The translations under genes were made by a program, and so were the position numbers. DNA of 63,970 nt, filler included, from Craspedostauros australis (taxonomy: Eukaryota): NCBI GenBank assembly GCA_030167865.1. It is 14 parts of 14 records of this genome, joined end to end, with 100 filler letters (N's around TTAATTAATTAA, not from the genome) between each part and the next. Parts side by side here need not be neighbours in the genome. Positions count along the whole stretch, not along the records: positions 47,249 to 53,147 come from JALAGF010000863.1; 13 more parts are not named here. One strand, 5' to 3'. The notes beneath the pieces are model-generated. The model ran no database searches. It was not told where the DNA came from and was given only the letters and a program-made list of their open reading frames with translations. Of this stretch, positions 1,818 to 59,393 are shown in pieces. Every line of letters begins with the position of its first letter. Position 1 is the first letter of the stretch.

Positions 1818-3203
1818 CTATTTTCTTTGCTTGGCGGCAGAGGCATCCGCTGGATTCTCTGTCAGGCTCAGTGCCTCCTCATCCTTCTGCGCATCGGACT
1901 GCGTCGCCTCGACCGACTTGTTCGTCTTTCGCATGGGAGGCTGCTGGTAGATGACGCCGCCGGCCAGACAGAGCATGAGGCACATGATTCCGCTGTTGCC
2001 CGCGTGCTGATCCCAAACGACGAGGTTGAGGAGGATGGTGAGGCACTTGTTGAGCACCCCGATCAAGGTGAAGGAGGTGGCGGAGACGAGAGAACGGCAC
2101 CACCAGGCCGAGTAGCCGATGCCCGTCCCGATGAAGGATCCGAGGATGAGGAGGAAGATCGCGATTGGAGGGAGGTGTGCCTCATCCGACGGCTTGGACC
2201 ACCAGAAGTCCCAGAGGCCCGCGTACTCTCCCTTCACGTTCGCGAGGAGCATCATGGGGATGATGCCGAGGATGTTGGTGTAGATGACGGGCCCGCTCAA
2301 CGTTTCCAGCGGAACCGATTTGACGATCTTCTTTCCGTATGCCTGTCGAGGTGCGATGGGTTGGTAGCAGGTGGCGCATCATGTGGAAGAAGAATACATT
2401 GGAGAAGATATGGAGAATGGTGGGAGTCCAAGAGCTGTGTGAGAGTATGCAGCGGTGCGGACGCTGGCAATCCTGTGCGTTTCGGCACATTCCGAGGTCA
2501 TCCGAAGGTATAACATGTATAACACGCATAATATTGTGCAGTCTGCATCCTGAAATCATCTTCAAGAGAGAGAGAGAGAGAGAGACAGAGCACCTCGGAT
2601 ACATCACAAGCACCACTGGAACACCACAGAAAACATCCAAAAAAGCTCACGAGTCCCCCTGCTGTTAGTGCTGCTGCTGAAACGCACCATTTCCAAAGCG
2701 ATGATGATGAGGTAGATGATGGGCCAACCGTAGGCCGACCATCCTTGCATCTGGAACTTCTCATCGAAGCTGGCGTAACCGTAGGCACCGATGACCAAGG
2801 TGATCAGGCCCGCCCATCCCCTTGTGGAGGGCCACTCGCGACCCAGGAACATGACGTCCAGGATGACGACGGCGCATGGCGTGAGCGCGCGGAAGACGAT
2901 GATGGTCTCCACGTTGGACGTGGCCAGCGACCTCATGTTGCTGTAGACCCCGGTGGAGAAGAAGAAGATGTAGAGGAGGTATGGCTTGACGTACTCCCAC
3001 TTGAGCGGGTCCACCTTGACGACCTTCATGAATTCGGCTGTCTTGACCATGACCACGCAGGCGGCCAGCTGAATGACGACCACCAGCGATGGGAACGGGA
3101 GATGGTGCAGCGTCATCTTGTTCACCAGCACCAGCGTTCCGGAGCAGAAGGAGTACGCCAGGATCGACACGATCACCTGCTGCTCTTTGCTTAGACCCAT
3201 CAT
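1818..3203 (-). CDS. GDP-sugar (GDP-mannose/GDP-fucose) nucleotide-sugar transporter, GONST-like; exons 3203-2688 and 2342-1818
   Basis: Multi-TM protein with LVNK, NVETIIVFRA and SATSFTLIGVLNK motifs. A GT..AG intron (2687-2343) joins ...IALEM to AYGKKIV... in frame; ~346 aa. Confidence 0.85.
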
Positions 3204-3996
3204 CTTGGTTGTGTTTGTTTGTGCAGACTTTGTGCAGAACTTATGAAGAACTTGTGCTGTATCTACTGCTGAGACACGTCAACTCGATGTTTCTCTCTCT
3301 CTCTCTCTCTTCGACCTATTTTATTATACGAGGACGAGTAATCTTTCAATGGCTGTTGAATGTGATCGTTGCGCTCAGGAGACTTGCGTGCGAGTGCGAG
3401 CGCGAGTGCGAGAGAATGGGCCTGTTGTGAACGTGGAGAGTGGATGGGTCTTTGTTGTTGAGGATTTTGTTGTCTTTCACCTCCGACATGACCGGTGATG
3501 TCTTTTGCGTCATTGCCTGTTCCATCACAAAAATGTGGCTGCCGACCGTTGAAAATGACCACTTTGTGGACTCTCTGAATCGGCACCAATAATGGTACCC
3601 AGTTGTTGTATGTGATACCTTTGATACCATGTCGACGCAACCATCTGATCGTGGTTGCAATAGATGACTCGTCAGACTGAATCCTTCAAAGTTATCACAG
3701 TATGGCTTTCGTGCTTCAGAATGGGTCATTCTGAAACAAGGAGAACGAGTTGGCACAACAGAACGCAACACAGCACTGTTCGCGAGGTTGACCATGGCGC
3801 GATGATGCCGATCCAGCACAACCACGGCGCCACAACCACGGTGCCACAACCACGGTGGCACGGCAGCACAAGCAAGAGACACCCACCAACCGCCAACTGA
3901 CGGAAAGCAATCAAAACTCCAGCAAGCCACAAGGATCACCGTGCACACAGATCGTACAAGAACGCCGCGCTGGATCGCATTGAACACAAGCAAACC

Positions 3997-6900
3997 ATGG
4001 CGCCAACCAACTCAAATGAATCGTACTGCACATTCACGCTGCCGGCGGATGTCACAGCGGGAGGCCTCCCATCGGAGGAGGAGATCGCCAAGGATCTCGA
4101 ATCCACAGACAATGAGGTGAGTGCAGCGGCTTGGGCGTCTGCGTCTGCGTCTGCGTCTGCGTTTGAGCTTGCGCTTGCATGTGTGGACTCTTGGACTTTC
4201 TTGTCATCGCTCCGAAGCTCCACGAGAAATGTCCATGTTCGTGTCCGTGTCTGTACTCGAATGTGTTTGTGGATGTGTTCGTGGACGTGTATCTGCTGTA
4301 CTGCAGTGCTGTGCTATGCTCTGCTATACCCACGCTTTACCCATGCCATACCACTCGAGCATATGCAATTAGAACACATCGTAGCATGCCCCACACTCAC
4401 AAGTCTAGCCGTTCCCTAACAACATCCAACATTACATCCAACATTACAAACAACATTACAAACAACACTATGTATTATACAACATTAAACACAACAATAT
4501 ATACAACAGGTCAAGAAGCACGCCTTGAAGGCAGCCATCATGGCCATGCTGGGAGGCGAAGCCATGCCACGCATCCTGATGCAAGTCATCCGCTTCTGCA
4601 TCAACTCGGACGACAAGCAGCTCAAGAAGCTCTGCATGCTGTACTGGGAGGTCGTGCCCAAGTACCAGGAGTTCACCTCCGAGGAGATTGCCGCAAGGGC
4701 CTCCGGTCAGTTCGTCCCGCGCAAGCTCCTTCAGGAGATGATCCTGGTCTGCAACGCCCTCATGAACGACCTAAACCACGCCAACGAGTACGTGCGGGGA
4801 TCCATGCTGCGGTTCATCTGCAAGGTCAAGGACGAGGAGATCCTGGGGCCGCTCGTCCCCTCCATCAAGAACTGCCTCTCGCACAGACACTCCTACGTGC
4901 GCAAGAACGCGGCGCTTGCGGTCTTCCACGTCCACAAGATGCACGGCGACTCGCTCATGCCGGACGCGCCGGAGCTCATCGCAGAGTTCATCGCCACTGA
5001 AACCGACGTCTCCGCCCGCCGCAACGCCTTCCTCATGCTCTTCAACCAGCAGGAGGACCTAGCCTTCGACTTTCTCGCCAAGAACATGGACGACGTCAAC
5101 AAGTTCGGAGACGGATTCGCCCTCCTCGTCCTCGAGCTCACGCGCAAGGTCTGCAGACAGGAGCCCACCCAGAAGTCGCGCTTCGTCCGGGTCCTATTCC
5201 AGATGCTCTCCAGCCCATCGGCCGCCGTCAGCTACGAGGCCGCGTGGACCCTGGTCTCCCTCTCCAACGCCCCCACTGCCGTGCGAGCCGCCGCCGTCAC
5301 CTACACCAACCTCCTCAACGGCCAGAATGACAACAACGTCCAGCTCATCGTCCTTGAGAAGCTCGAATCCCTCAAGACGAGGCACGGAAAGATCCTGCAG
5401 GAGCTCCTCATGGACATCCTCCGGGCGCTCAGCAGTCCCAACCCGGACATCTGTCAGAAGGTTCTCCACATCGCCATGGAAGTCGTCACGCAGCGCAACG
5501 TGCAGGACGTCGTCTCCACCCTCAAGCGCGAGCTGCAGAAGGCGATGGACGACGATGACGCCTCCAACACCAACGACGCCAAGAAGATCGTGTACCGCAA
5601 CATGCTCGTGCAAGCCATCCACGAGTGCGCGACGCGTTTCCCAGTGGTTGCCGAGTCTGTCGTTCACACCCTCCTTGATCTGCTCAGCAACTCCTCCTCC
5701 ACAGCCGCCGAGGGCACCACCTCTCTGCAGGTCGCCATCTTCGTGCGTGCCATCATGGAGCATTATCCAGATCTGCGCAGCAGCCTGCTGCCCAAGCTGC
5801 TTTCCAGCATCTCCGACATCACATCAAACCCCGTCATGTGTATCTGCCTCTGGATCGTGGGAGAGTACTCCGAGGCCGCAGAGAGCATCTCGGAAGGCTT
5901 CGACACGCTTCTGGAGGAGGTCGGCAATCCGCCCTTCGTCATTCTCAAGAATGATCCAACGAAGGAGGACGGCGCCGATGCCTCCGGTGACGGCGAACCG
6001 CGAATGATCACCAAGAACGTCGTGCTCTCCGACGGCACCTACGCCACGCAGACGATCTACAACACGCAGAGCAAGCCCAGCAAGGGACAGCTGGACTCCA
6101 CGCCGTCGCTGCGAAAGATGATTATCGGCGGTGACGTCTTCCTGGGCGAAACGTTGGCCAGCTCCCTCACCAAGCTCTGTCTCAAGGCCAAGAAGGATCC
6201 CTCCTCCGATGCGGTCGAATGGAAGTCCCGCACTGCCAAGGCCCTTCTCGTTATGTGCGGCATCGTCAAGATGGCCGAGGTCACCATCCAGGCACAGCGG
6301 TCGGCCACGACGGATTGCGTCGACCGCCTCACCTTGTGCTGCCGCGCCCTCCTCGATCCAAAGCAGCAGGCCCTCATGGAGCCCATCCTCCTGGAACAGG
6401 GTAAGATACAGTTCGCAAAGTACCTCTCCAACCTCAAGGCCAAGCAGCAGGCGCAACAGGAGTCGAAGCAAAATCAATCGCACCAGCAACAGCTGCAGCA
6501 GAAGGAGCAAGACCAGCCATCCACGCAGGCGGACGATCTCATCCACTTCCGACACCTGCGCGCCTTCGCCGTGGAGGGCGGCGACGTCGATCTCGATGAT
6601 GGTGCCGATCTCGCCCGCGCCACGGGCTACAACGCCGGATCTCTGCTTTCCAACGAACTCTCCCACATCTACCCCCTCTCCGGCTTCGCCGATCCTGTCT
6701 ACGCAGAAGCCCTGGTGACCGTGCACGACTACGATATCGTTCTTGAGATCCTGGTCATGAACCGCACACCAAATACGCTTGCCAACCTCACAGTCGAGCT
6801 CTCGACAATGGGTGACATGAAGATCGTCGAACGTCCGCAGTCGCACACCATCGGGCCGATGGATCAAATGAACATCCGCGCCAGCATCAAGGTCAGCAGC

Positions 6901-47248: not shown

Positions 47249-48122
47249 CAGGGGGGACACAGGGGGTACACAGGGGGGACACAGGGGGGACACAAGGGGT
47301 ACACAGGGGGGACACAGGGGGGACACTTTCGCGAAGATCCGTCAACAGCTTTTCGTCTTGGTGTGTTGCTTGATTTTTGCCAAAGCATCACATCGTGACA
47401 ATGTGTGCAGAATTGAACACACCAACAAACCACCTCCGCCACCTCCGCCACACACAACGCCAACAACAAGCGGACCCACATTCGCATCACCATCCATCGT
47501 CATCCATCATCATCATCACAACAACAGCAACAACAACAGCAACAACAACAGCAAGCAGATCCACATTCGCATCACCATCCATCGTTATCCATCATCATTG
47601 TCATCCATCATCATCGTCACCCATCATCATTGTCATCCATCATCATCGTCATCCATCACCATCCACCATCAGCATCATCACAACAACAGCAACACCGGCA
47701 AGCAGATCCGCATTCACATCACCGTCCATCGTCATCCATCATCATCGTCATCCATCGGCATCATCACAACAACAGCAACAACAACAGCAAGCAGATCCAC
47801 ATTCGCATCACCATCCATCGTCATCCATCATCATCATCATCATCATCATCACAACAACAGCAACAGCAGCAATGGCAAGCAGATCCACATTTGCATCACC
47901 ATCCATCGTCATCCATCATCATCGCCATCCATCATCATCGTCATCCATCACCATCGCCATCCATCATCATCGTCATCCATCACCATCGTCATCCATCACC
48001 ATCCACCGTCATCATCATCACACCAACAGCAAATAGATCCACATTCGCATCACCATCCATCATCATCATCTACCTCCGCCTCTACAGCCACTGCCAAGAC
48101 CACCATGGCACCCAACGAGCCA
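47249..48122 (+). repeat. Left inverted arm: G-run minisatellite, unique core, then modular repeat array
   Basis: Matches the reverse complement of 52170-53147; outer ~270 bp identical by eye. Confidence 0.9.
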
Positions 48123-48731
48123 TCTGTACCATGGCGAGACAGCAAGGCCAAAGACCTACTCAGGAAAGCACTGCTTGATGGAACCATCCCCCTCCAACCA
48201 ACCAAAGACTTATCAAACAGAGACATCTTCCTATCAATCCCAGAGCTCAGTGAATATAACTTCGATCACTTTCCTTCAAGGCTGAGTGGACTCCGCAAGC
48301 AAGTTGCAAAGTCCCTCAATCGCAAAGCTATTGATGAAGCAGCTTTTGCAAACTATACCTCCAGCCATCAACCATTGATTGTGAACCATCGAAGTGAACC
48401 ACAATGGTTCCGATCAGAAATGCAAAAAGATTTGAAAGAGGACATGGCTGCAAACAAGCATAAGACCATGCCCCTATCTGCATTGTTTGGCTCAAGACAA
48501 GCATATCAAACCATTCCATATCGAACATTCTACCTCCATGTCAAGCAGGAAGAGAGAAGAATAAAATTCAATCAATACCTTGTTGAAAAAGCCAAGCAAA
48601 GAGAGAGCAGAAGAACCAAGAGAAGCACAGGAACCACAAGAAACAATCAAACGGCCCAATCTGGAATTCAGCAAGCTGGCAACCAACCAGATGACAGACT
48701 CCTTGCGGAGTTTGATGCATTGCACATATAG
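48105..48731 (+). CDS. Element gene A, 208-aa basic protein with two W-x-x-S helical repeats (possible DNA-binding partner)
   Basis: CACCATGG start context; PWRDSKAKDLLRKALLDG and PQWFRSEMQKDLKEDM repeats; intact ORF. Confidence 0.7.
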   Translation: MAPNEPSVPWRDSKAKDLLRKALLDGTIPLQPTKDLSNRDIFLSIPELSEYNFDHFPSRLSGLRKQVAKSLNRKAIDEAAFANYTSSHQPLIVNHRSEPQWFRSEMQKDLKEDMAANKHKTMPLSALFGSRQAYQTIPYRTFYLHVKQEERRIKFNQYLVEKAKQRESRRTKRSTGTTRNNQTAQSGIQQAGNQPDDRLLAEFDALHI

Positions 48732-49215
48732 ACACCACGACGATCACACAAGTACACCCTAAGCAATAGTTCTTACTCTTATTTGAATCAATTCATACAT
48801 CTACTTCGATTAATATCTGTTTAATGTAGCAGTGACGGAGGGTTACCCTACCTTGCTATTCATCATACTGACCTTGTCAACTGGCTTCGAATGGGCAAGC
48901 TTTGAACTGTACACACATGCTCAAACCAATTTAAATGCTGGCAGCATTGGTTGCGAATGTTCACTATGGTGGGTTCTGTAGTTCTTCCTGTGGTTGGTGG
49001 GATCGCGAAACAGCTCGTGGACAAGAATTGATGCTCATTGCGGGTATGGTGATCTGTGCTCGCGAAATTGCGCTGTCTTTCTTGTGTGTGCAGCTGTGAT
49101 GAGCATAGTCTGTTGGTGATGTGTGTGATGGGAGAGTATCTGTGTGCACTGCTACAACCTTCCGGACATCTCTCATCATCATAAGGTGCACTCTCAGTTC
49201 ATAAATCAACCAAGC

Positions 49216-51116
49216 ATGAACACCAACAGGCTTCCACCACTGAGCCCACCACCAAAAACTCCACGAGGCATACGGTTCACTCCAACTCGATCGCTCACAC
49301 CGGCCTACACACCTCTCAGTGTTGGGTATCAATCAGATACAGTGAGCATCTCTGACAGTATTGGCTCCTCCGATCCACGGCGCGCAACATACAAGCAGCT
49401 TGCAGAAGACATCTTGCAGAACGGAGGCATCGCACGGTACAAGCAACGGCTGGGAATTACAGCTTTGAAGCAGATTTGTGACAGTCGTCCCGAGATCTAC
49501 GGAACGCCAGGCACCGACCTTCGCCGTGCAGTCCAGAAACGAGCAGCCAAGTGGGGCTCAGAATTCAGCAACGCGCAATTCCGATCATTTGCAGAAAGAG
49601 TCTATCAGGTTGATCTTGCTCAATTCCAAGAAGCTGAAGCCAAGCAACACGTCGCAACCAAGTTCAGCAACCGCACCGCAAACATCTCAGCACCAGCACA
49701 CACGACCTCTTTTGTTCCACCAGAGTTTGTTATCACCGAAACAGCACCAACACCAACACCAGCAAAGAAGTGCAAAGTCACTGCATCAACATCAACAATG
49801 GGGTACGAGAGAGCCAAGGCCATGGCCAAGAACACAGGCATTCCCACCAGTAAGTACCTTGATGGGCAAATTGCATGATTGTTTTGTTTGTGTGCTGATG
49901 TTGTTGGGCGCAGACAGTTCGATGTTGACTCACATCCACCTTTTTTGCGCATGTGCAGCTTTCATCGAAGTCGATACCAAAAACCCCACCAACAACGGGG
50001 AGCTCACCATCTGTCACATCCAGTCAGTCAAAGGAGTCGGAAAGAATGAGTACTGGCCTGCCTACAAGATTGTCCTGGCGGCGGACAGACGCTGGATCAA
50101 AATCCTGCCACACATCGACCACTACGAAGCACGAATCGTCTCAGCCAATGAGATTCTCCTCAAAGTGCCACGTTGGGATTTTGTCACGTTCAAACACCGT
50201 GACGAGCTCTTCCATGCTCTTGGCGACGACACGATGGTCGCCACAGACGAAATGCGCCTGGAGGTGCAAAACAAAATGAGCCGCGGGGACTCCATCACTG
50301 GCCTCTCTCGTCACATCCTCCTTTCTTTCCCTGAAGAACACAATCTGTCGATTGAAGCCATTCATGAGGACTTCGACCGGCAAGACGAGACGCTCGTCCC
50401 ACCCTTTCCGTTGGTTGTGAAGACTCGCCTGCAGGTGAAGCCGACCAGCAAGGGCAAGGATAGCGTTGACAGCTTTGTGTGCTGGGATGTAGCCAGAGTG
50501 GACAACGGATGCCACAAAATGGGAGCATTCCAACAGATGGAGAAGAAGAAGCTCTTGTTTGATGATTCTGACGATGAAGATGGTGGGTATTGATGAGTGA
50601 GTGTACTTGCAACATGCGACAGTACCACTTAATTCACTGCTCATGGAATGCATGCTGAACCAGCCTTGTACGAACAAGAGCCAATTGCTGAACTACTTCT
50701 CACACCGTCATGAATCCTTCTCAAATGCCGTTGCATTCTATCTTGTTTTTTCAGTTCATTCACCACATGCAGGTCGTGGCGGAGGCAGAGGTGGAGGCAT
50801 GCCAGACACTGTCAAGTCGTCTGCAGAAACCGCGCGCCGCATGGGCATGAGCATTCTCCAAAGAGCTGAGCATGCTGCCTACACGGCAAACCGAGCCTCC
50901 TCCAATAATGGCAATGCAGGCGATGCACTGAATTTCCCAGACCTGCCCACAGACCCTGTGCCATTCGTGGCTCCACTTGTACCAACACATGAACCAAGCG
51001 CCAACACTGCTGCAAGCAACCGCAAGGCTGTAGAAGATGCCATCATGGATGACCCAACAGGTCAATTTAAGCGACCCTTCGAAGGTGACAGCGATGACGA
51101 TCTGGACAGTCTCTGA
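49216..51116 (+). CDS. Element gene B, uncharacterised ~533 aa; exons 49216-49849, 49959-50582, 50773(or 50755)-51116
   Basis: GTAAGT..GCAG and GTGGGT..CAG introns join three ORFs in frame; no family recognised. Confidence 0.65.
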
Positions 51117-51218
51117 AAAACAGAAGAGACGAGCACACACAGACAAAAGAAATAAGGATACTGCCACAAATTAGTCACTCAGCCATGTTATTATTTAGTT
51201 ATCATCTTGTGCTTTGCG

Positions 51219-52187
51219 TTACACGTATACATCGAACAATGGTGCTTCAAGCTCAAGCTTGTATTGGCATATGACGCAAATTGATTCGAAGCAAATCTTG
51301 ATCTTTTTTTCGCCATGTCGAAACCGGCCGGACACTGCATCAAATGACTTTACCATTCGATTGAAAGCTTCCTGTCTCATTCTTGCTCTTGTTTTGAATA
51401 TTGCAATATTAAAAGAATCTAGAGCATTGGGAGTGCTTAGCAGCAGTGGGTAGCCAGTATAGCCATTGTCGGCAATTCCCATTTTGTTTGATTCCTCCAA
51501 TTTTGCTTTCAGTCCACATTCAACGAAAATTTTCCTGTCAGACATCCCAGCCTTGAATGGCCCATTCATCCAGATGAGCTTGGACTCGGATATGGCAAGG
51601 CCCAGTTCATAGTTGATGCCAGCCTTGTTGAACTTGTGCGAGTAGTAGGCCTTGTCTTGTGGGTATTGCTCATGTTGTGGCTCTTGAATCCAGCAGTGGG
51701 TTCCATCAACTGACACCACCCATGTGTCGTTTCCATAGTTGTGTTCTGGCCATCTGATCTTCATCCCTTTCAGGGCTTGGATGTGTTCCAGGTAGAACCA
51801 GATCTTCTGTCTTGCTGTCTTGTTTGAGAGGTTGAAGAGTGACTCTCGTTCCACCTCTGTCGGATAGCGTTTCAGAAAGTGGAATGCCATCAGCATGTGT
51901 TCCAATGAGAGCTTCTTGTTTGGTATCCGATGCCTTGCGTTGGGGAAGGACTGAAGATCTTCCCACACCTTGTTGCATACTTGCGGTGTGCATCCATATA
52001 TACCAACAAAGCGCAAACGGTTGGGCTCGTTGGTTCGCACTCTGCCAATTTGCTGCTCCGTGAACCCAATGAGGCGCAAGCCACGAAGCATGACCTCATC
52101 ATCGCAAAAGATGACTCCATCGAATGGAACCTCTGCATCTGCCTCATTTGCAACGGAGGTGGCATTGTCTGGCTCGTTGGATGCCAT
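51219..52187 (-). CDS. DDE transposase, PIF/Harbinger (DDE_Tnp_4-like), 322 aa
   Basis: VSVDGTHC, YYSHK, GPFKAGMSD, IADNGY, RMRQEAFN and RFRH motifs, preceded by an HTH-like FLKRYPTE region; catalytic D, D and E present. Confidence 0.88.
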   Translation of the reverse strand: MASNEPDNATSVANEADAEVPFDGVIFCDDEVMLRGLRLIGFTEQQIGRVRTNEPNRLRFVGIYGCTPQVCNKVWEDLQSFPNARHRIPNKKLSLEHMLMAFHFLKRYPTEVERESLFNLSNKTARQKIWFYLEHIQALKGMKIRWPEHNYGNDTWVVSVDGTHCWIQEPQHEQYPQDKAYYSHKFNKAGINYELGLAISESKLIWMNGPFKAGMSDRKIFVECGLKAKLEESNKMGIADNGYTGYPLLLSTPNALDSFNIAIFKTRARMRQEAFNRMVKSFDAVSGRFRHGEKKIKICFESICVICQYKLELEAPLFDVYV

Positions 52188-52862
52188 GGTGGTCTTGGCA
52201 GTGGCTGTAGAGGCAAAGGTAGATGCTGCTTGATGGATGGTGATGCGAATGCGGATCTGCTTGCCGGTGTTGCTGTTGTTGTGATGATGATGGATGGTGA
52301 TGATGGATGACGATGGATGGTGATGCGAATGTGGATATGCTTGCCGGTGTTGCTGTTGTTGTGATGCTGATGATGGTGATGGATGACGATGGTGATGGAT
52401 GACGATGGACAGTGATGCGAATGTGGATCTGCTTGCCGGTGTTGCTGTTGTTGTGATGATGATGATGGTGGATGGTGATGGTGGATGGTGATGGATGACG
52501 ATGGTGATGGATGGCGATGATGATGGATGACGATGGATGGTGATGCGAATGTGGATCTGCTTGCTGTTGTTGTTGCTGTTGTTGTTGCTGTTGTTGTGAT
52601 GATGATGATGGATGACGATGGACAGTGATGCGAATGTGGATCTGCTTGCCGGTGTTGCTGTTGTTGTGACGATGATGATGGTGGATGGTGATGGATGACG
52701 ATGATGATGGATGACGATGATGATGGATGACGATGATGATGGATGACAATGATGATGGATGACAATGATGATGGATGACAATGATGATGGATGACAATGA
52801 TGATGGATGACGATGGATGACAATGGACGGTGATGCGAATGTGGATCTGCTTGCCGTTGCCG

Positions 52863-52893
<31 letters not shown>

Positions 52894-53147
52894 TGACGAT
52901 GGATGGTGATGCGAATGTGGGTCCGCTTGTTGTTGGCGTTGTGTGTGGCGGAGGTGGCGGAGGTGGTTTGTTGGTGTGTTCAATTCTGCACACATTGTCA
53001 CGATGTGATGCTTTGGCAAAAATCAAGCAACACACCAAGACGAAAAGCTGTTGACGGATCTTCGCGAAAGTGTCCCCCCTGTGTCCCCCCTGTGTACCCC
53101 TTGTGTCCCCCCTGTGTCCCCCCTGTGTACCCCCTGTGTCCCCCCTG
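52170..53147 (-). repeat. Right inverted arm
   Basis: Reverse complement of 47249-48122 with a different number of internal modules. Confidence 0.9.
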
Positions 53148-53247: not shown

Positions 53248-54684
53248 TGCCATGAAGCCTATCTCTGTTGTGTGTTCGGCGTCCTTCAAATCCTGGATGT
53301 ACGCGTACTCTCCTTCATGGTATGCTCCTTCAAGCTCCGTGTTCCAGCTCGTGAACACCTGCATTTCGATGTTTGAGGACATCAGGATCTGTAGGTATAC
53401 GTCTTCGCTCTTCGATGTCGGGTTGGCCCTGCCAATGTAGTATCTGAGATCTTTCCACATGGCTGGTATGTCGGCCTCAGTGATGATGCATCCCTTTGCC
53501 TTGTTCTTCTTGTACCATGGGCTTATGACGAGACTTTGATCCATGCCTTTGGCTTCGTCGTACCACTGGCGAAAGCGCTCTTGGAAATCCCGAACTGGCG
53601 TTTTCGTGCCTTTGGGGATTTTGAGCCGCATTTCGAATCTTTCGTAGTATCGTCGTCTTGGGCTTGACATTTGGGGCTGCTTCTTCTGATGCTTGGTCCA
53701 TCCTTCACCGTCTGCTTCTGGGTTAGCGTTGCTCTCGTTTGCTGCCGGAGCTCGAGCTGTGCTGAGATTGCCATCTTTATCTCTCAGTGCTGGCGATGTG
53801 ATCTTGGTGTTCGTGGTGTAGGCTGTCAAGTTTGCCTGCTTCAGAGGCTTCTTTGTTACCAGCCCCACGAGGTCGTAGCTGTCGTCATCGCTGTCCATCT
53901 TCATTGCCTCGTCCGCTGAGTCCACTTCAGGAGGGGTTTTCTCTGCCATGTACTGGCAACCCATGTAGGCTGTTGCTGCCGCCCACAGAATCGTCATCTG
54001 GTTGGCTATCATCGATTTGCCTCCTGGCTTGGCTTCGTCTGAGAAGCATTTGGCCGGATCTGTTAGTGACAGGTCCGCTACCAGTTGCTTGATCGCCTTT
54101 CTGTCTGGATCGTCCGACGGGACTTTGGATTTCCCCAACTTCGTGGTTCGCCCGTCCATCACTGTTTGGAAGAATATGGTCATGTCTTTGATGCTGGGCA
54201 TGGTTGCTGACACCATGGAAGTATCTGCCTTCTCCCACATGGCTTTCTTGATGAGAGCTTTCTTCACTTGGTTGTGCATTGCGCGCTCGCCTTCACCGTA
54301 CTTCTCGCTGGACTCGAATCCCTTCGCTTGCTGTGCGATCACATCGTTGAGTTTTTTCCACCGCGCCGCGTTCGGATCCCTCCATGTCGTCGCTACTTCG
54401 CCTCGTTTCTCCATTAATTCGTCTTCGTTGCTGCTCGGATTTGGCTTGGGAGGAGGCTTGGGTGTTGCGGTTTGCACCGCTGGCCCATGCACCTCCGACA
54501 TCTCGACGTCGTCTGCTTTATCCTCCATGATTCTGACTTGCTTTGTCACCTTCATCGTCGTTTTGGATCTTTCGTGTTACGTAGAATTTGCTGTAGATTT
54601 CGTACTTGATTTTGTTGATGTGTGTCGTTTTTTGCTTTTACTAGTGTTATCGTTGTTTTTGTTTTTTCGGGTTCTGGTATTATA
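53248..54684 (-). mobile_element. 5' end and ORF1 (start 54555) of a probable non-LTR retrotransposon
   Basis: Near-identical second copy at 56177-57612 with different upstream flanks; short A-rich 5' UTR. The ORF core (DQSLVISPW...DLRYY) resembles diatom LINE ORF1 from memory; RT is not visible. Confidence 0.6.
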
Positions 54685-56176
54685 GCAGTGCCTTATGCCA
54701 GCAGATGATTGAGGGATAATTGTAGATTTTGGTTACCTTCCTTCCTTCCTTCTTGCCTCCACCTGCTCTACTTTGCGTTACTCCACAAGTAGCGCACTCT
54801 GCCATGCTGCCTCTGCTTACTCTGTGCCTGTTCCAAGAACCACACATGAATTCCAAACCTGCGCCACCTGGTCGCCCATTTACTTGCTTCCATGTTTGGC
54901 ATCAAGTTTTGGTGGTGGCATGTTTCCATATGTTGACACCGCAGTTACAACTGACTCGAGCCTTGCATGGTTGGACTTGACCAACTGATCTCAGTCACAG
55001 ACGTTAACGGTCTCGATACAGTACTGGCAACAGTAGATACATGACTGGACTCAATTGGGAGACTCGGATATTCTAGCTATCTATCAGTCTAGGCCAGATG
55101 GGCTGAATCAGAGCGCCAGGTGTCAACGCAGCCGCTGCTGGAGGGAGCGCCGCGTCAAGAACAGGAGCACTGTCGCGCACGCCGTCGATGGGAGGTGCAA
55201 CATTGGCAGGGTCGTCAGTGTTGAACCCACCGGTGCTGGGAAAGTTGTTGTTGCGCGTCATGGTGATGAGGGCGAAAACGATGGAAGTGTGTGTGTGCGA
55301 AATTCAGCCAGAACACCAACGATAAGACCAATGACGGCACCGGGTTGGGTGGAATGGCAGTGGAAACGCATGTGTAAGACCGTGAGGTCAGAAGAAGGTT
55401 CATAACCTGTGAGAGGAGACTGTGAATTGGGGAAACACAGAATTTATGAGATGTTCCTGTGGTGAGAGGAGGACGAGCACAGACTGATGCAGGCCAGACT
55501 GTGACACAATCCTGGTGTTGAATCAGCAACGGTTCGTGCATGAAAGAGGGGGAGGAGGAGAAGGAGGGTGTTGCGGTCGTCGGAGTCGGAGAGTGTCGCA
55601 CCAAAAGTGAATTTCATGTATCGGCGTGGGACACCATAAGTTCAAAGTAGTCTGTCCCTTGTTGGGATTCAATCGAGGTTTTTGTTCCGTTTTTGTTGTG
55701 CCTTTCGTCCCCACGAAGGACAGACTCCCACAAACAGAACACAACAAACTCGATAATTCGCAAAATCAACTTCGCAAAACGGAATGGTGTCTCCCATCCG
55801 TGGTACTTCCTCTTTTCGATCGCCGATTCGTAGTATCCCGTGGATCCGCCTTAGCTAGTCCCAAATTAGTGACGTGTCAGAGAGGGAAATTGTTTAATCA
55901 TGAGCACGTACTGTGAGAGCCTCTGGTTTTAGCAGTTTGGGCGGCATTGGGAAAGTCGACTGGCGTGACTTTCATATTAGCGAATTGAGAATTTTTTTTT
56001 TGCGAATCAGACTCATGACCAAACAAGGAACACAGTGCAAGTTACACGGTACGATCCAGTCCCACAAATAAACCTCNNNNNNNNNNNNNNNNNNNNNNNN
56101 NNNNNNNNNNNNNNNNNNNNTTAATTAATTAANNNNNNNNNNNNNNNNNNNNNNNNNNNNNNNNNNNNNNNNNNNN

Positions 56177-57612
56177 TGCCATGAAGCCTATCTCTGTTGT
56201 GTGTTCGGCGTCCTTCAAATCCTGGATGTACGCGTACTCTCCTTCATGGTATGCTCCTTCAAGCTCCGTGTTCCAGCTCGTGAACACCTGCATTTCGATG
56301 TTTGAGGACATCAGGATCTGTAGGTATACGTCTTCGCTCTTCGATGTCGGGTTGGCCCTGCCAATGTAGTATCTGAGATCTTTCCACATGGCTGGTATGT
56401 CGGCCTCAGTGATGATGCATCCCTTTGCCTTGTTCTTCTTGTACCATGGGCTTATGACGAGACTTTGATCCATGCCTTTGGCTTCGTCGTACCACTGGCG
56501 AAAGCGCTCTTGGAAATCCCGAACTGGCGTTTTCGTGCCTTTGGGGATTTTGAGCCGCATTTCGAATCTTTCGTAGTATCGTCGTCTTGGGCTTGACATT
56601 TGGGGCTGCTTCTTCTGATGCTTGGTCCATCCTTCACCGTCTGCTTCTGGGTTAGCGTTGCTCTCGTTTGCTGCCGGAGCTCGAGCTGTGCTGAGATTGC
56701 CATCTTTATCTCTCGGTGCTGGCGATGTGATCTTGGTGTTCGTTGTGTAGGCTGTCAAATTGGCCTGCTTCAGAGGCTTCTTTGTTACCAACCCCACGAG
56801 GTCGTAGCTGTCGTCGTCGCTGTCCATCTTCATTTCCTCGTCCGCTGAGTCCACTTCAGGAGGGGGTTTCTCCGCCATGTATTGGCAACCCATGTAGGCT
56901 GTTGCTGCCGCCCACAGAATCGTCATTTGGTTGGCTATCATCGATTTGCCTCCTGGCTTGGCTTCGTCCGAGAAGCATTTGGCCGGATCCGCAAGTGACA
57001 GGTCCACTACCAGTTGCTTGATCGCCTTTCTGTCTGGATCATCCGAGGGGACTTTGGACTTCCCCAACTTCGTGGTTCGCCCGTCCATCACTGTTTGGAA
57101 GAATACGGTCATGTTTTTGATGCTGGGCATGGTTGCTGACACCATGGAAGTATCTGCCTTCTCCCACATGGCTTTCTTGATGAGAGCTTTCTTCACTTGG
57201 TTGTGCATTGCGCGCCCGTCTTCGCCGTACTTCTCGCTGGACTCGAATCCCTTCGCTTGCTGTGCGATCTCGTCGTTGAGTTTTTTCCACCGCGCCGCGT
57301 TCGGATCCCTCCAAGTCGTCGCTACTTCGCCCCGTGTCTCCATCAATTCGTCTTCGTTGCTGCTCGGATTTGGCTTGGGAGGGGGCTTGGGTGTTGCGGT
57401 TTGCACCGCTGGCCCATGCACCTCCGACATCTCGACGTCGTCTGCTTTATCCTCCGTGATTCTGACTTGCTTTGTCACCTTCATCGTCGTTTTGGATCTT
57501 TCGTGTTACGTAGAATTTGCTGTAGATTTCGTACTTGATTTTGTTGATGTGTGTCGTTTTTGCTTTTACTAGTGTTATCGTTGTTTTTGTTTTTTCGGGT
57601 TCTGATATTATA
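56177..57612 (-). mobile_element. Second copy of the LINE-like 5' end and ORF1 (start 57484)
   Basis: Same ORF with ~10 amino-acid differences; cut by a gap at the same base. Confidence 0.6.
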
Positions 57613-57622
57613 TAGATGGGTG

Positions 57623-58039
57623 CTAGTTGGGAAATTGTGCACATGTTCCACATTTCCGATGCGACTCCCCTTTCAGTTTTGTGTTCTGAGTTGTTCTCGT
57701 CTTCATCTCTACAATGAATACCTCATTGTGTGCATCATTGGTTGGATCCCCCACAATGTTCAGGAAATCGATGGAGGCACGTACGTAGGTATTGCTCTGT
57801 TTCCGGACGAGGCCAGCATGAAATGCGGCCTTGATGGTCGTGTTGATTCCACCCACATGTTTGCAGTTCATGGCTGCTCTCATCAGTAGTTCCTCGTTTG
57901 CATGTCCCAGACGTGTGTAGGCATAGGATTTACCATGCCAGGCCTTCATGAACCATGCCTGCAAAGCNGTCTTTACAAGCTGTTGCTGCAGTTCCAGCAA
58001 CTGGGGTGATGCGGTACCATCACTTCCATTGCTGAGCAC
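57623..58039 (-). pseudogene. YqaJ/lambda-exonuclease-like PD-(D/E)XK nuclease fragment
   Basis: TRLGHANE...AGLVR...VRASIDF...VEMKTR follows the G-x-x-x-E, GL, ASxD, ExK order of YqaJ-like domains. Confidence 0.55.
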
Positions 58040-59393
58040 ATCATTTTNGTTGTGTTCTCCTTGTGTATCAGTCTGGAGACTGGAGTTACTGTTCCTTGTT
58101 GCTGCTGTGGCTTAGTCTGCATTATTGGATGGGAATGAAGGATTGCTGTGCTCTGAGCTACCTCTATTTTTGCGTGCAGCTGTGCTATCATCTGGTTGGC
58201 ATGCGTCAGTGAATGCTGATGTGTCTGCAGCCTCTGCTCTACTGGAAGCACCTGCATTCGACGCGGATGTGGCAGTAGTGGNTGGACCAGAGGCAGATGT
58301 GCTCGATGCTGCAGTGTNGGAAGCTGGCNTGCCTGATGTGCAAGGGNTNGGTGTGTTGAATGTGGACNATGTGGATTGTGAGGCAGGTGAGCCTGAAGTC
58401 TTGGGCACAGATGCTGCAGCTGTGGCTTCTTCAGTGGGGTGTGTGTTGCATGCCGAAGTTTGAGGATATGGAGGATTGAGCTGGAGATGAAGGGAGAGCG
58501 AAAGTGCTGACGACTGAGGTTGTAGATGTTCAAGTCTGCCGAGCAGACAAAGATTGTCCTTGATGGCAGTGGACAGACTTTGTGCGCCTTGATGCTGGTG
58601 TGAGTCGAGATGGCCTCGTCCATCTAGAAGCAGATGATCTCGTGCTGTGCGTTGTAGATNNNNNNNNNNNNNNNNNNNNNNNNNNNNNNNNNNNNNNNNN
58701 NNNTTAATTAATTAANNNNNNNNNNNNNNNNNNNNNNNNNNNNNNNNNNNNNNNNNNNNCTTTCCATTTTTTGGAGCGAAATCAATTAATTGAAAACGCG
58801 TTTCCATTATCCATTTTATTTTACATTATCGGGACTGGCTTTCAATTAATGGAAAAGCGAAATCCATTTTCCATTGTGCTTTCCATTTTTTGGTATGGAG
58901 AGGCGTTGCGCGGGACTCGATAGCTTGAACAACAAACATCAATATGTTATGAGTATGCCTGTGTACATGTCATTGACATTTAAATGAGATCAATTATTTA
59001 ACCTATCATTCCCAACGTACTTTTTACAATGATGGCCTTCGAAGAGGAGAACGAAGCGAAAAATTGAAGGAGAAGAGCGATGAGGTCGAATTAGTCGAAT
59101 GCCGTCGAGGTTGATGCATTTGCCGAGTGTCCCAGGAAAGTTGATCGATGTTTTGTTTTGTCTGACCGCCGCCCGTCTACAAGAGGAAAACGAAAAAGAG
59201 GCGTCAAGAAACATCAACTCGCTTTCTCTCCTTGCCTTTCCCACAATGGTGATGGCACGGAACGGCCTCTGGTGGACCGTTCAGTCCGTTCCATCCTCGC
59301 ACGCTCGCAAGCACACCCACTCATATAATAATAGCTTGTATCCACGCATCCCAGCATAATACAAGCGCCACTGGCAATTGATGCAGAGCAGCG

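Follow-up and report, generated by a model that had tools for sequence, protein, structure and literature searches.

In a 63,970-nucleotide (nt) window from the genome of Craspedostauros australis (GenBank assembly GCA_030167865.1), which joins parts of 14 records and is numbered here from its first letter, positions 47249 to 53147 are a single whole contig (JALAGF010000863.1; 5,899 nt, 48.7% G+C) carrying a transposase gene of the PIF/Harbinger type and two further genes, which we call A and B, between long inverted arms. These three genes form a conserved clade, and what is new here is that A and B are conserved companions of the transposase, defining a diatom PIF/Harbinger clade with two uncharacterized accessory proteins. 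The kb-long arms and the order of the genes are specific to the window copy. We consider the contig to be a cut-and-paste DNA transposon of the PIF/Harbinger (PHIS) type, apparently intact and probably autonomous, from a diatom-type genome, belonging to the clade with two accessory genes and bearing the arms described below, a reading to which we assign a probability of roughly 0.6.

The transposase and its two companion genes

The transposase (Table 1), which the first-pass annotation of this DNA had described as an intact minus-strand gene of the PIF/Harbinger type, matches the Pfam family DDE_Tnp_4 (PF13359) over profile positions 1 to 157 of 158 (E value of 3.5e-11; 43.4 bits, against a cutoff of 24.8), and its residues D134, D213, and E246 (in the numbering of a 295-amino-acid [aa] query) are invariant in all 27 aligned sequences, both of which bear out that description. 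The protein can be aligned over its full length with homologs of about 315 aa. The closest of 166 homologs is 54% identical, and the only eukaryotes named among them are the diatoms Nitzschia inconspicua and Fragilaria crotonensis; one homolog, on a contig of 839 nt, carries the label of a Bacteroidota metagenome-assembled genome. No relative turned up when viral contigs were scanned with the transposase profile, and sequence searches of the PDB with profiles of the transposase, A, and B returned nothing meaningful.

Scanning metagenome contigs with the transposase profile yielded 262 confirmed relatives, from which 80 loci were kept (designated by L numbers below). These loci collapse into 62 nonredundant groups; many are too short to hold neighboring genes, and some represent the same locus recovered from different samples. 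By tblastn and profile searches, gene A is present in 37 of the 80 loci and the C-terminal domain (C-domain) of B in 29, and an iterated search places the N-terminal domain (N-domain) of B in 30. Genes A and B are both present in 21 of the 62 groups, in 19 of the 25 groups with at least 4.5 kb of sequence, and in 15 of the 17 with at least 6 kb, whose transposases share 41 to 56% identity (one of the other two has B only, and one has neither A nor B). Whether the three genes co-occur elsewhere was the key test named in the first-pass annotation, and its outcome is positive.

Gene order was surveyed in 34 hand-listed groups carrying A or B, 20 of which show all three genes. With T for the transposase and arrowheads for orientation, the arrangements in these 20 groups are T> <B A> (11 groups), <B A> T> (4 groups), T> <A B> (3 groups), T> B> <A (1 group), and <B T> <A (1 group), and B and A stand head to head in 18 of them. 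The window's own order, T> <B <A, occurs in none of the 20 and, given the head-to-head placement of B and A in the relatives, is best regarded as derived. Because gene order varies, the linkage of A, B, and the transposase does not reflect one inherited locus, and this linkage has outlasted both rearrangement and a protein divergence of roughly 50%, as would be expected if the three genes were parts of one mobile unit and not if they were chance neighbors. Some of the relatives are flanked on either side by other DNA, in contigs as long as 19 kb.

In some relatives, an additional open reading frame (ORF) of about 670 to 740 aa lies between the transposase and B (L007, positions 2856 to 5063, plus strand; L019, positions 1845 to 3848, minus strand). 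The two ORFs are similar to each other, have no Pfam match, and may be, for some members of the clade, a fourth gene or cargo.

On the plus strand, the first-pass annotation had recognized two intact genes of unknown nature, A with 208 aa and B with about 533 aa in three exons; the size of A and the integrity of both genes stand, but two exons and 422 aa are the better description of B. For A, a word search with the single sequence found no match, and a profile search retrieved 17 proteins, none of them named. The structure modeled from a 17-sequence alignment (predicted local distance difference test [pLDDT] of 87) has two small modules of three helices, with a long helix after each. For module 2, an exhaustive structural aligner, whose own caution line is a Z score of about 8, ranks Myb-like GARP domains first (Z score of 6.0, root mean square deviation [rmsd] of 2.3, and 56 residues for 5lxu_A; Z score of 5.8 for 8xas_A), and homeodomains come after them with Z scores of about 5.5. 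On the strength of this model, we describe A as a putative helix-turn-helix-like three-helix bundle and no more, and the Myb-like label is tentative. Module 1 (W..S.A+..L...G.IP...RL..LRK) is present in two or three tandem copies in several relatives (L019, L035, L042, L047, L055, L059, L069, L078, and L080) and, judged by its sequence, is a repeatable unit.

Prediction of a complex between the transposase and A, made without supplied alignments, gave a score of 0.79; among solved complexes, 51 of 78 attain that mark, as do 2 of 108 mismatched pairs. The best of three controls scored 0.01. Contacts agree in at least 56% across the prediction runs, and the pLDDT of the partner is at least 68. 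The predicted interface brings residues 69 to 91 of A together with transposase residues 126 to 129, 220 to 238, and 292 to 295 (numbered as in the 295-aa query). The segment contributed by A is the conserved RA..D..AF.NY helix that lies between its two modules, and near-invariant columns of both families fall within the predicted contact. Binding of A to the transposase is predicted by the model and is supported, not demonstrated, and A may be the functional counterpart of the usual Myb-like Harbinger partner. If so, B alone is left as an extra protein, and the earlier proposal of extra accessory proteins holds in that A and B are both conserved with the transposase but perhaps applies, as to what is extra, to B only.

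The two-exon model of B is supported by its full-length homologs (470 to 575 aa), which contain the N-domain and the C-domain in one chain, and its splice junction (IPT/T/FIEVD) reproduces the start of the C-domain in these homologs. The downstream ORF that had been taken as a third exon lacks homologs in all 80 related loci and has no Pfam match, and the homologs of B continue only a short way past the C-domain (9 of 98 have Y as their last residue, as does the unspliced ...DEDGGY* of the window). We therefore set the three-exon protein of about 533 aa aside; from the sequence, a gene of two exons that ends at position 50593 is more likely, and the stretch from 50755 to 51116 is probably 3' untranslated sequence of B.

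The C-domain of B, modeled from a 58-sequence alignment (pLDDT of 85; predicted template modeling score of 0.78), is a predicted beta-sandwich with a helical insert. Among the 50 matches listed by the exhaustive aligner, most are small heat-shock (alpha-crystallin) or CS/p23-type domains with Z scores of 4.2 to 6.3, including the CS domain of Shq1p (3eud_A; Z score of 6.3, rmsd of 2.8, and 82 residues). The list is uniform in fold and modest in score, and the model weakly suggests a likeness to HSP20/CS domains. Atlas look-ups with exon 1 and with the C-domain gave no usable match. In keeping with the first-pass annotation, which had called both genes unknown, A and B are by sequence recognizable neither as Myb/SANT nor as YqaJ proteins, according to Pfam scans of the window proteins and of members of both families: no YqaJ, THAP, or TET/JBP domain was detected in the transposase, in A, in the pieces of B, or in 17 A and 58 B family members, and the pieces and family members of B had no Pfam match.

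Structure of the inverted arms

Repeat finding and direct alignment of the two ends of the contig both recover the inverted arms exactly where the first-pass annotation had placed them. Each arm comprises four modules, namely, an 11-nt terminal array (CAGGGGGGACA and variants), a unique stretch, a C/A-rich satellite, and a matching inner end of about 75 nt. Once one arm is inverted, the outermost 270 nt of the two are 100% identical, and the variants of the 11-nt unit follow the same order in both tips. In the satellite parts, CAT/CAC-rich tandem arrays with a period of about 85 nt, direct alignment reveals several indels of about 40 to 58 nt as well as substitutions, so that the arms are diverged copies and not exact mirrors. 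The innermost 75 nt or so match again and include an ATG and five more codons, reading MAPNEP in gene A and MASNEP in the transposase. This modular build of tandem sub-repeats (11-nt arrays, satellite, and core motifs) agrees with the foldback-like character that had been claimed for the arms, and three intact ORFs and identical arm tips are consistent with the young age proposed for this copy.

As repeats, the arms are far above chance. A two-unit probe of the 11-nt array has 12 matches, confined to the tips, where 0 are expected; the 22-nt core motif occurs six times in the left arm, seven times in the right arm, and nowhere else in the window (0 expected from 100 shuffles). We regard the 22-nt cores as a candidate protein-binding array. 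The window contains no second copy of the element, the sole match being a low-complexity stretch of 45 nt.

Each arm reaches 18 nt into the coding sequence of the gene that faces inward from it, A or the transposase, and thus supplies that gene with its upstream region and start codon. The two outer genes consequently have a common upstream region, start codon, and five further codons, and the frames of the arms contain no in-frame ATG 5' of MAPNEP or MASNEP. The arms are extremely asymmetric between strands, with a GC skew of about -0.6 in 47250 to 48250 and of about +0.6 in 52000 to 53000, and the sense strand 5' of both outer genes is rich in C and A. The possibility that the arm repeats are His-rich coding sequence was ruled out, their frames being open through C/A-rich composition alone.

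The ends of the related loci are of a different kind. Most show no inverted repeat at the sensitivity used. The only other long-armed relative found is L080, a two-gene relative in which inverted repeats of about 320 nt (positions 953 to 1259 and 4173 to 4490; 76% identity) surround a convergent transposase and A; TTAGGG-like repeats lie at the inner ends of these repeats. The terminal inverted repeats (TIRs) of L019 and L079 measure 42 and 33 nt, respectively, and no matching 3-bp flanks are present at the boundaries of the L079 TIR as aligned. Among L007, L009, and L011, independent insertions of one relative, similarity stops within an AGT/CTA microsatellite, and no clean terminus or duplication is readable. 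The suggestion that long arms are a trait of the lineage is thus not borne out, with one relative having a repeat of about 320 nt and two having TIRs of 33 and 42 nt. Nor does arm length alone fall outside what has been recorded: Han et al. (2015; PMC4482050), surveying the PHIS superfamily, give 5 to 1,042 bp as the span of PIF/Harbinger TIR lengths, with about 93% shorter than 60 bp, which makes the length of the window arms rare and not unprecedented.

Table 1. Coordinates of the element and of its parts, in window positions
Feature	Position	Strand	Remarks
Left inverted arm	47249..48122	+	874 nt; modules inward: 11-nt array, unique stretch, satellite with six 22-nt cores, gene A start
Left-tip tandem array	47249..47326	+	7.1 copies of the 11-nt unit CAGGGGGGACA; sits at contig end
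Six 22-nt core motifs	47470..48054	+	Spacing of 85 to 154 nt, within CAT/CAC-rich satellite
Gene A	48105..48731	+	208 aa, one intact ORF; two predicted three-helix modules, long helix after each; no Pfam family
Gene B exon 1	49216..49849	+	Disordered N terminus, then conserved small N-domain (LAEDI..GGI...YG motif region)
Gene B intron	49850..49958	+	GTAAGT...CAG (GT-AG), 109 nt; splicing restores frame
Gene B exon 2	49959..50593	+	C-domain, predicted beta-sandwich with helical insert; ends ...DEDGGY*, stop at 50591-50593
ORF earlier taken as gene B exon 3	50755..51116	+	In-frame splice possible (donor 50583, acceptor 50754 or 50772)
Transposase ORF	51219..52187	-	322 aa, intact, DDE_Tnp_4
Catalytic D/D/E codons of transposase	51705-51707, 51468-51470, 51369-51371	-	Calculated from D134, D213, and E246 in the 295-aa query numbering
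Right inverted arm	52170..53147	-	978 nt; mirrors left arm, with seven 22-nt cores; carries transposase start
Right-tip tandem array	53070..53147	-	7.1 copies of the 11-nt unit; exact mirror of 47249-47326
Spacers between small contigs of the window	N44-TTAATTAATTAA-N44		Artificial

Proposed mechanism and alternative explanations

In the mechanism that we propose for this element, A would be the DNA-binding partner that recruits the transposase and would correspond to the Myb-like protein that canonical Harbinger elements encode. The central helix of A (residues 69 to 91), which is conserved, would dock on the transposase at the conserved STPN..D...FK region situated between its second D and its E, and the helix-turn-helix-like modules of A would read repeated sites in the arms, the candidates being the 22-nt core, the 11-nt terminal array, or both. 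In the weakest step of the scheme, B, with its small N-domain and HSP20/CS-like beta-sandwich, might serve as an adaptor or chaperone-like factor, acting, for example, in the assembly, stability, or nuclear delivery of the complex. Each arm would provide the promoter, 5' leader, and start codon for the adjoining gene, by analogy to the TIRs of maize MuDR. The second arm would have been created by an inverted duplication of the gene A end, from which the transposase would have borrowed its first six codons. In the A family, an EP-x-I-x-W motif stands directly ahead of the first helix; as EP-x-x-x-W after the start is native to this family, the shared codons would be native to A and the transposase side would be the copy, and it is from this, together with the unique gene order, that we infer the duplication.

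A broader claim would be that the contig represents a widespread, uncatalogued branch of diatom PIF/Harbinger elements in which A, as a helical adaptor clamping the transposase near its active site, and B, as an HSP20/CS-like protein with a possible tie to host chaperones, replace the Myb/SANT partner, the kb-long arms of the window copy being arrays of binding sites and promoters equipped with start codons. Taken as a whole, this picture is tentative, and we consider it possible but doubtful.

Several observations weigh against the reading of the contig as an intact transposon bounded by its arms, or against the functions assigned to its proteins. The contig stops at the arm tips, without flanking sequence, so that the arms are putative termini and the window copy a putatively mobile one. 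The two ends of the contig break off at one mirrored base, but a graph assembler would give the same result for any perfect inverted repeat, and the shared end point does not indicate that the ends are real. The motifs of the window's arms are present in none of the 80 related loci, and, with long arms in only one other relative, no conserved binding site backs the site-recognition step. Foldseek comparisons to the PDB returned nothing at an E value of 0.001 or lower, either with the model of A or with that of the B C-domain, Pfam scans of A and its 17 family members had no Myb, SANT, or MADF match, and module 1 of A matches tandem FF domains (3hfh_B; Z score of 5.4) about as well. Since the Z scores are at most 6.3, under the caution line of the aligner, and Foldseek gave no match, the Myb-like label for A and the HSP20/CS-like label for B are both tentative. 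The complex score, moreover, is the model's own confidence, and neighboring genes picked blind passed an older run of the complex test in 7 of 44 cases.

Somewhat unlikely, in our view, is an arrangement in which the three-gene transposon is real and its 0.9-kb arms lie internally, as inverted duplicates of a promoter and 5' end, with the true and probably short TIRs, and the target-site duplication, located beyond the contig or lost. The relatives with recognizable ends (L079 and L019) have the short TIRs that this would lead one to expect, as do about 93% of PIF/Harbinger elements in the survey text (<60 bp; PMC4482050); the contig stops inside an 11-nt tandem array, a frequent assembly breakpoint, and the uniqueness of its gene order relative to the 20 three-gene relatives points to local rearrangement. 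Set against this, the identical 270-nt tips, with their distinct terminal array, and the six to seven regular core motifs of the arms look like a transposon end with binding sites, TIRs of up to 1,042 bp are recorded for the superfamily in the same text, and L080 has inverted repeats of about 320 nt around its transposase and A.

An assembly artifact (a repeat that was collapsed, or two copies joined into a chimera) is an improbable source of the inverted arms, whether of the entire structure or of its identical outer 270 nt. The contig is short, it comes from a very fragmented assembly, and its ends are mirror-identical to the last base, as such an artifact would have it; however, the inner 600 to 700 nt of the arms have diverged by several indels and substitutions, the 4-kb center is not palindromic, and each arm is joined in frame to a different intact gene, giving the transposase a start that yields a length typical of its homologs. 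The divergence of the inner arms and the in-frame joins to two different intact genes make an artifact behind the whole structure unlikely. Least credible is a free linear element, plasmid-like or excised, with the inverted tandem-repeat ends as its true molecular ends. A complete contig with identical inverted tips of short tandem repeats is what such a molecule would give, but this one has a gene for a cut-and-paste DDE transposase and none for a polymerase or any other replication function, its relatives occur in contigs as long as 19 kb with other DNA flanking them on either side, and the scan of viral contigs was without a relative.

Comparison with known elements and neighboring DNA

PIF/Harbinger elements produce a 3-bp TWA target-site duplication upon insertion, and other PHIS groups produce other duplications or none. 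The window element resembles the former in its DDE_Tnp_4-type transposase with a DDE triad and in having a separate accessory ORF. The PHIS survey describes PIF/Harbinger elements as dependent on two ORFs, of which the accessory one encodes a Myb/SANT protein, or YqaJ in ISL2EU, and puts the average length of autonomous elements at about 4.1 kb (Han et al. 2015; PMC4482050). By these published figures (PMC4482050), the window element, at 5.9 kb, is near the average length, and its arms are inside the range of TIR lengths of 5 to 1,042 bp, but it departs from the great majority of families, about 93% of which have TIRs of less than 60 bp, in the kb-long and modular form of its arms. A further difference is that the clade has two conserved accessory genes instead of one, neither of them Myb/SANT/MADF by sequence. 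Where the textbook PIF/Harbinger element is a two-protein transposon with a Myb/SANT-like accessory protein, this clade has two accessory proteins of no known family.

Two other kinds of transposon share features of the arms. In maize MuDR, the TIRs are about 0.2 kb long and hold the promoters of two convergent genes but not satellite arrays. The window element is analogous in that its two outer genes are convergent and would each have their start region in a long terminal inverted repeat; it differs from MuDR, which has a MULE transposase, in its DDE_Tnp_4 transposase, and its repeat even takes in the start codon and five more codons. The FB and Galileo elements of Drosophila combine Mutator-related or P-type transposases with long arms of tandem sub-repeats. 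Like theirs, the arms in the window are long and composed of tandem sub-repeats, in copy numbers that are unequal between arms (6 versus 7 cores), whereas the sole transposase domain in the window element is DDE_Tnp_4, and the arms are a trait of this copy and not of the clade.

Closer in transposase type are ISL2EU and the fungal TET/JBP Harbinger-like elements, which, in the available texts of PMC4482050 and PMC12730594, are also PHIS-type elements with a second or extra gene that is not Myb; the window clade differs from them in that A and B belong to no Pfam family. In the literature searched, which lay outside Repbase/Dfam and the supplementary tables of Han et al. (2015), we found no description of a three-gene diatom Harbinger family. 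Harbinger-like elements in Thalassiosira receive only a brief mention in the available part of PMC2806351, and diatoms are not mentioned in the available main text of the PHIS survey (PMC4482050). Prior cataloguing of the family is possible.

The mobile elements of diatoms are poorly catalogued, and the present clade offers, in gene A with its confident predicted interface on the transposase, a concrete system for the roles of accessory proteins in transposition. An intact copy could seed a gene-transfer tool for diatoms. The long arms, with a putative promoter and a start codon, would illustrate how terminal repeats take over gene expression.

Elsewhere in the window, the neighboring contigs at 53248 to 56076 and 56177 to 58659 have their first 1,437 nt or so in common, at about 97% identity, and then diverge. 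An ORF of 442 aa (53251 to 54576, minus strand), without a Pfam match, lies within this common part, which is probably another repeat family of the genome.

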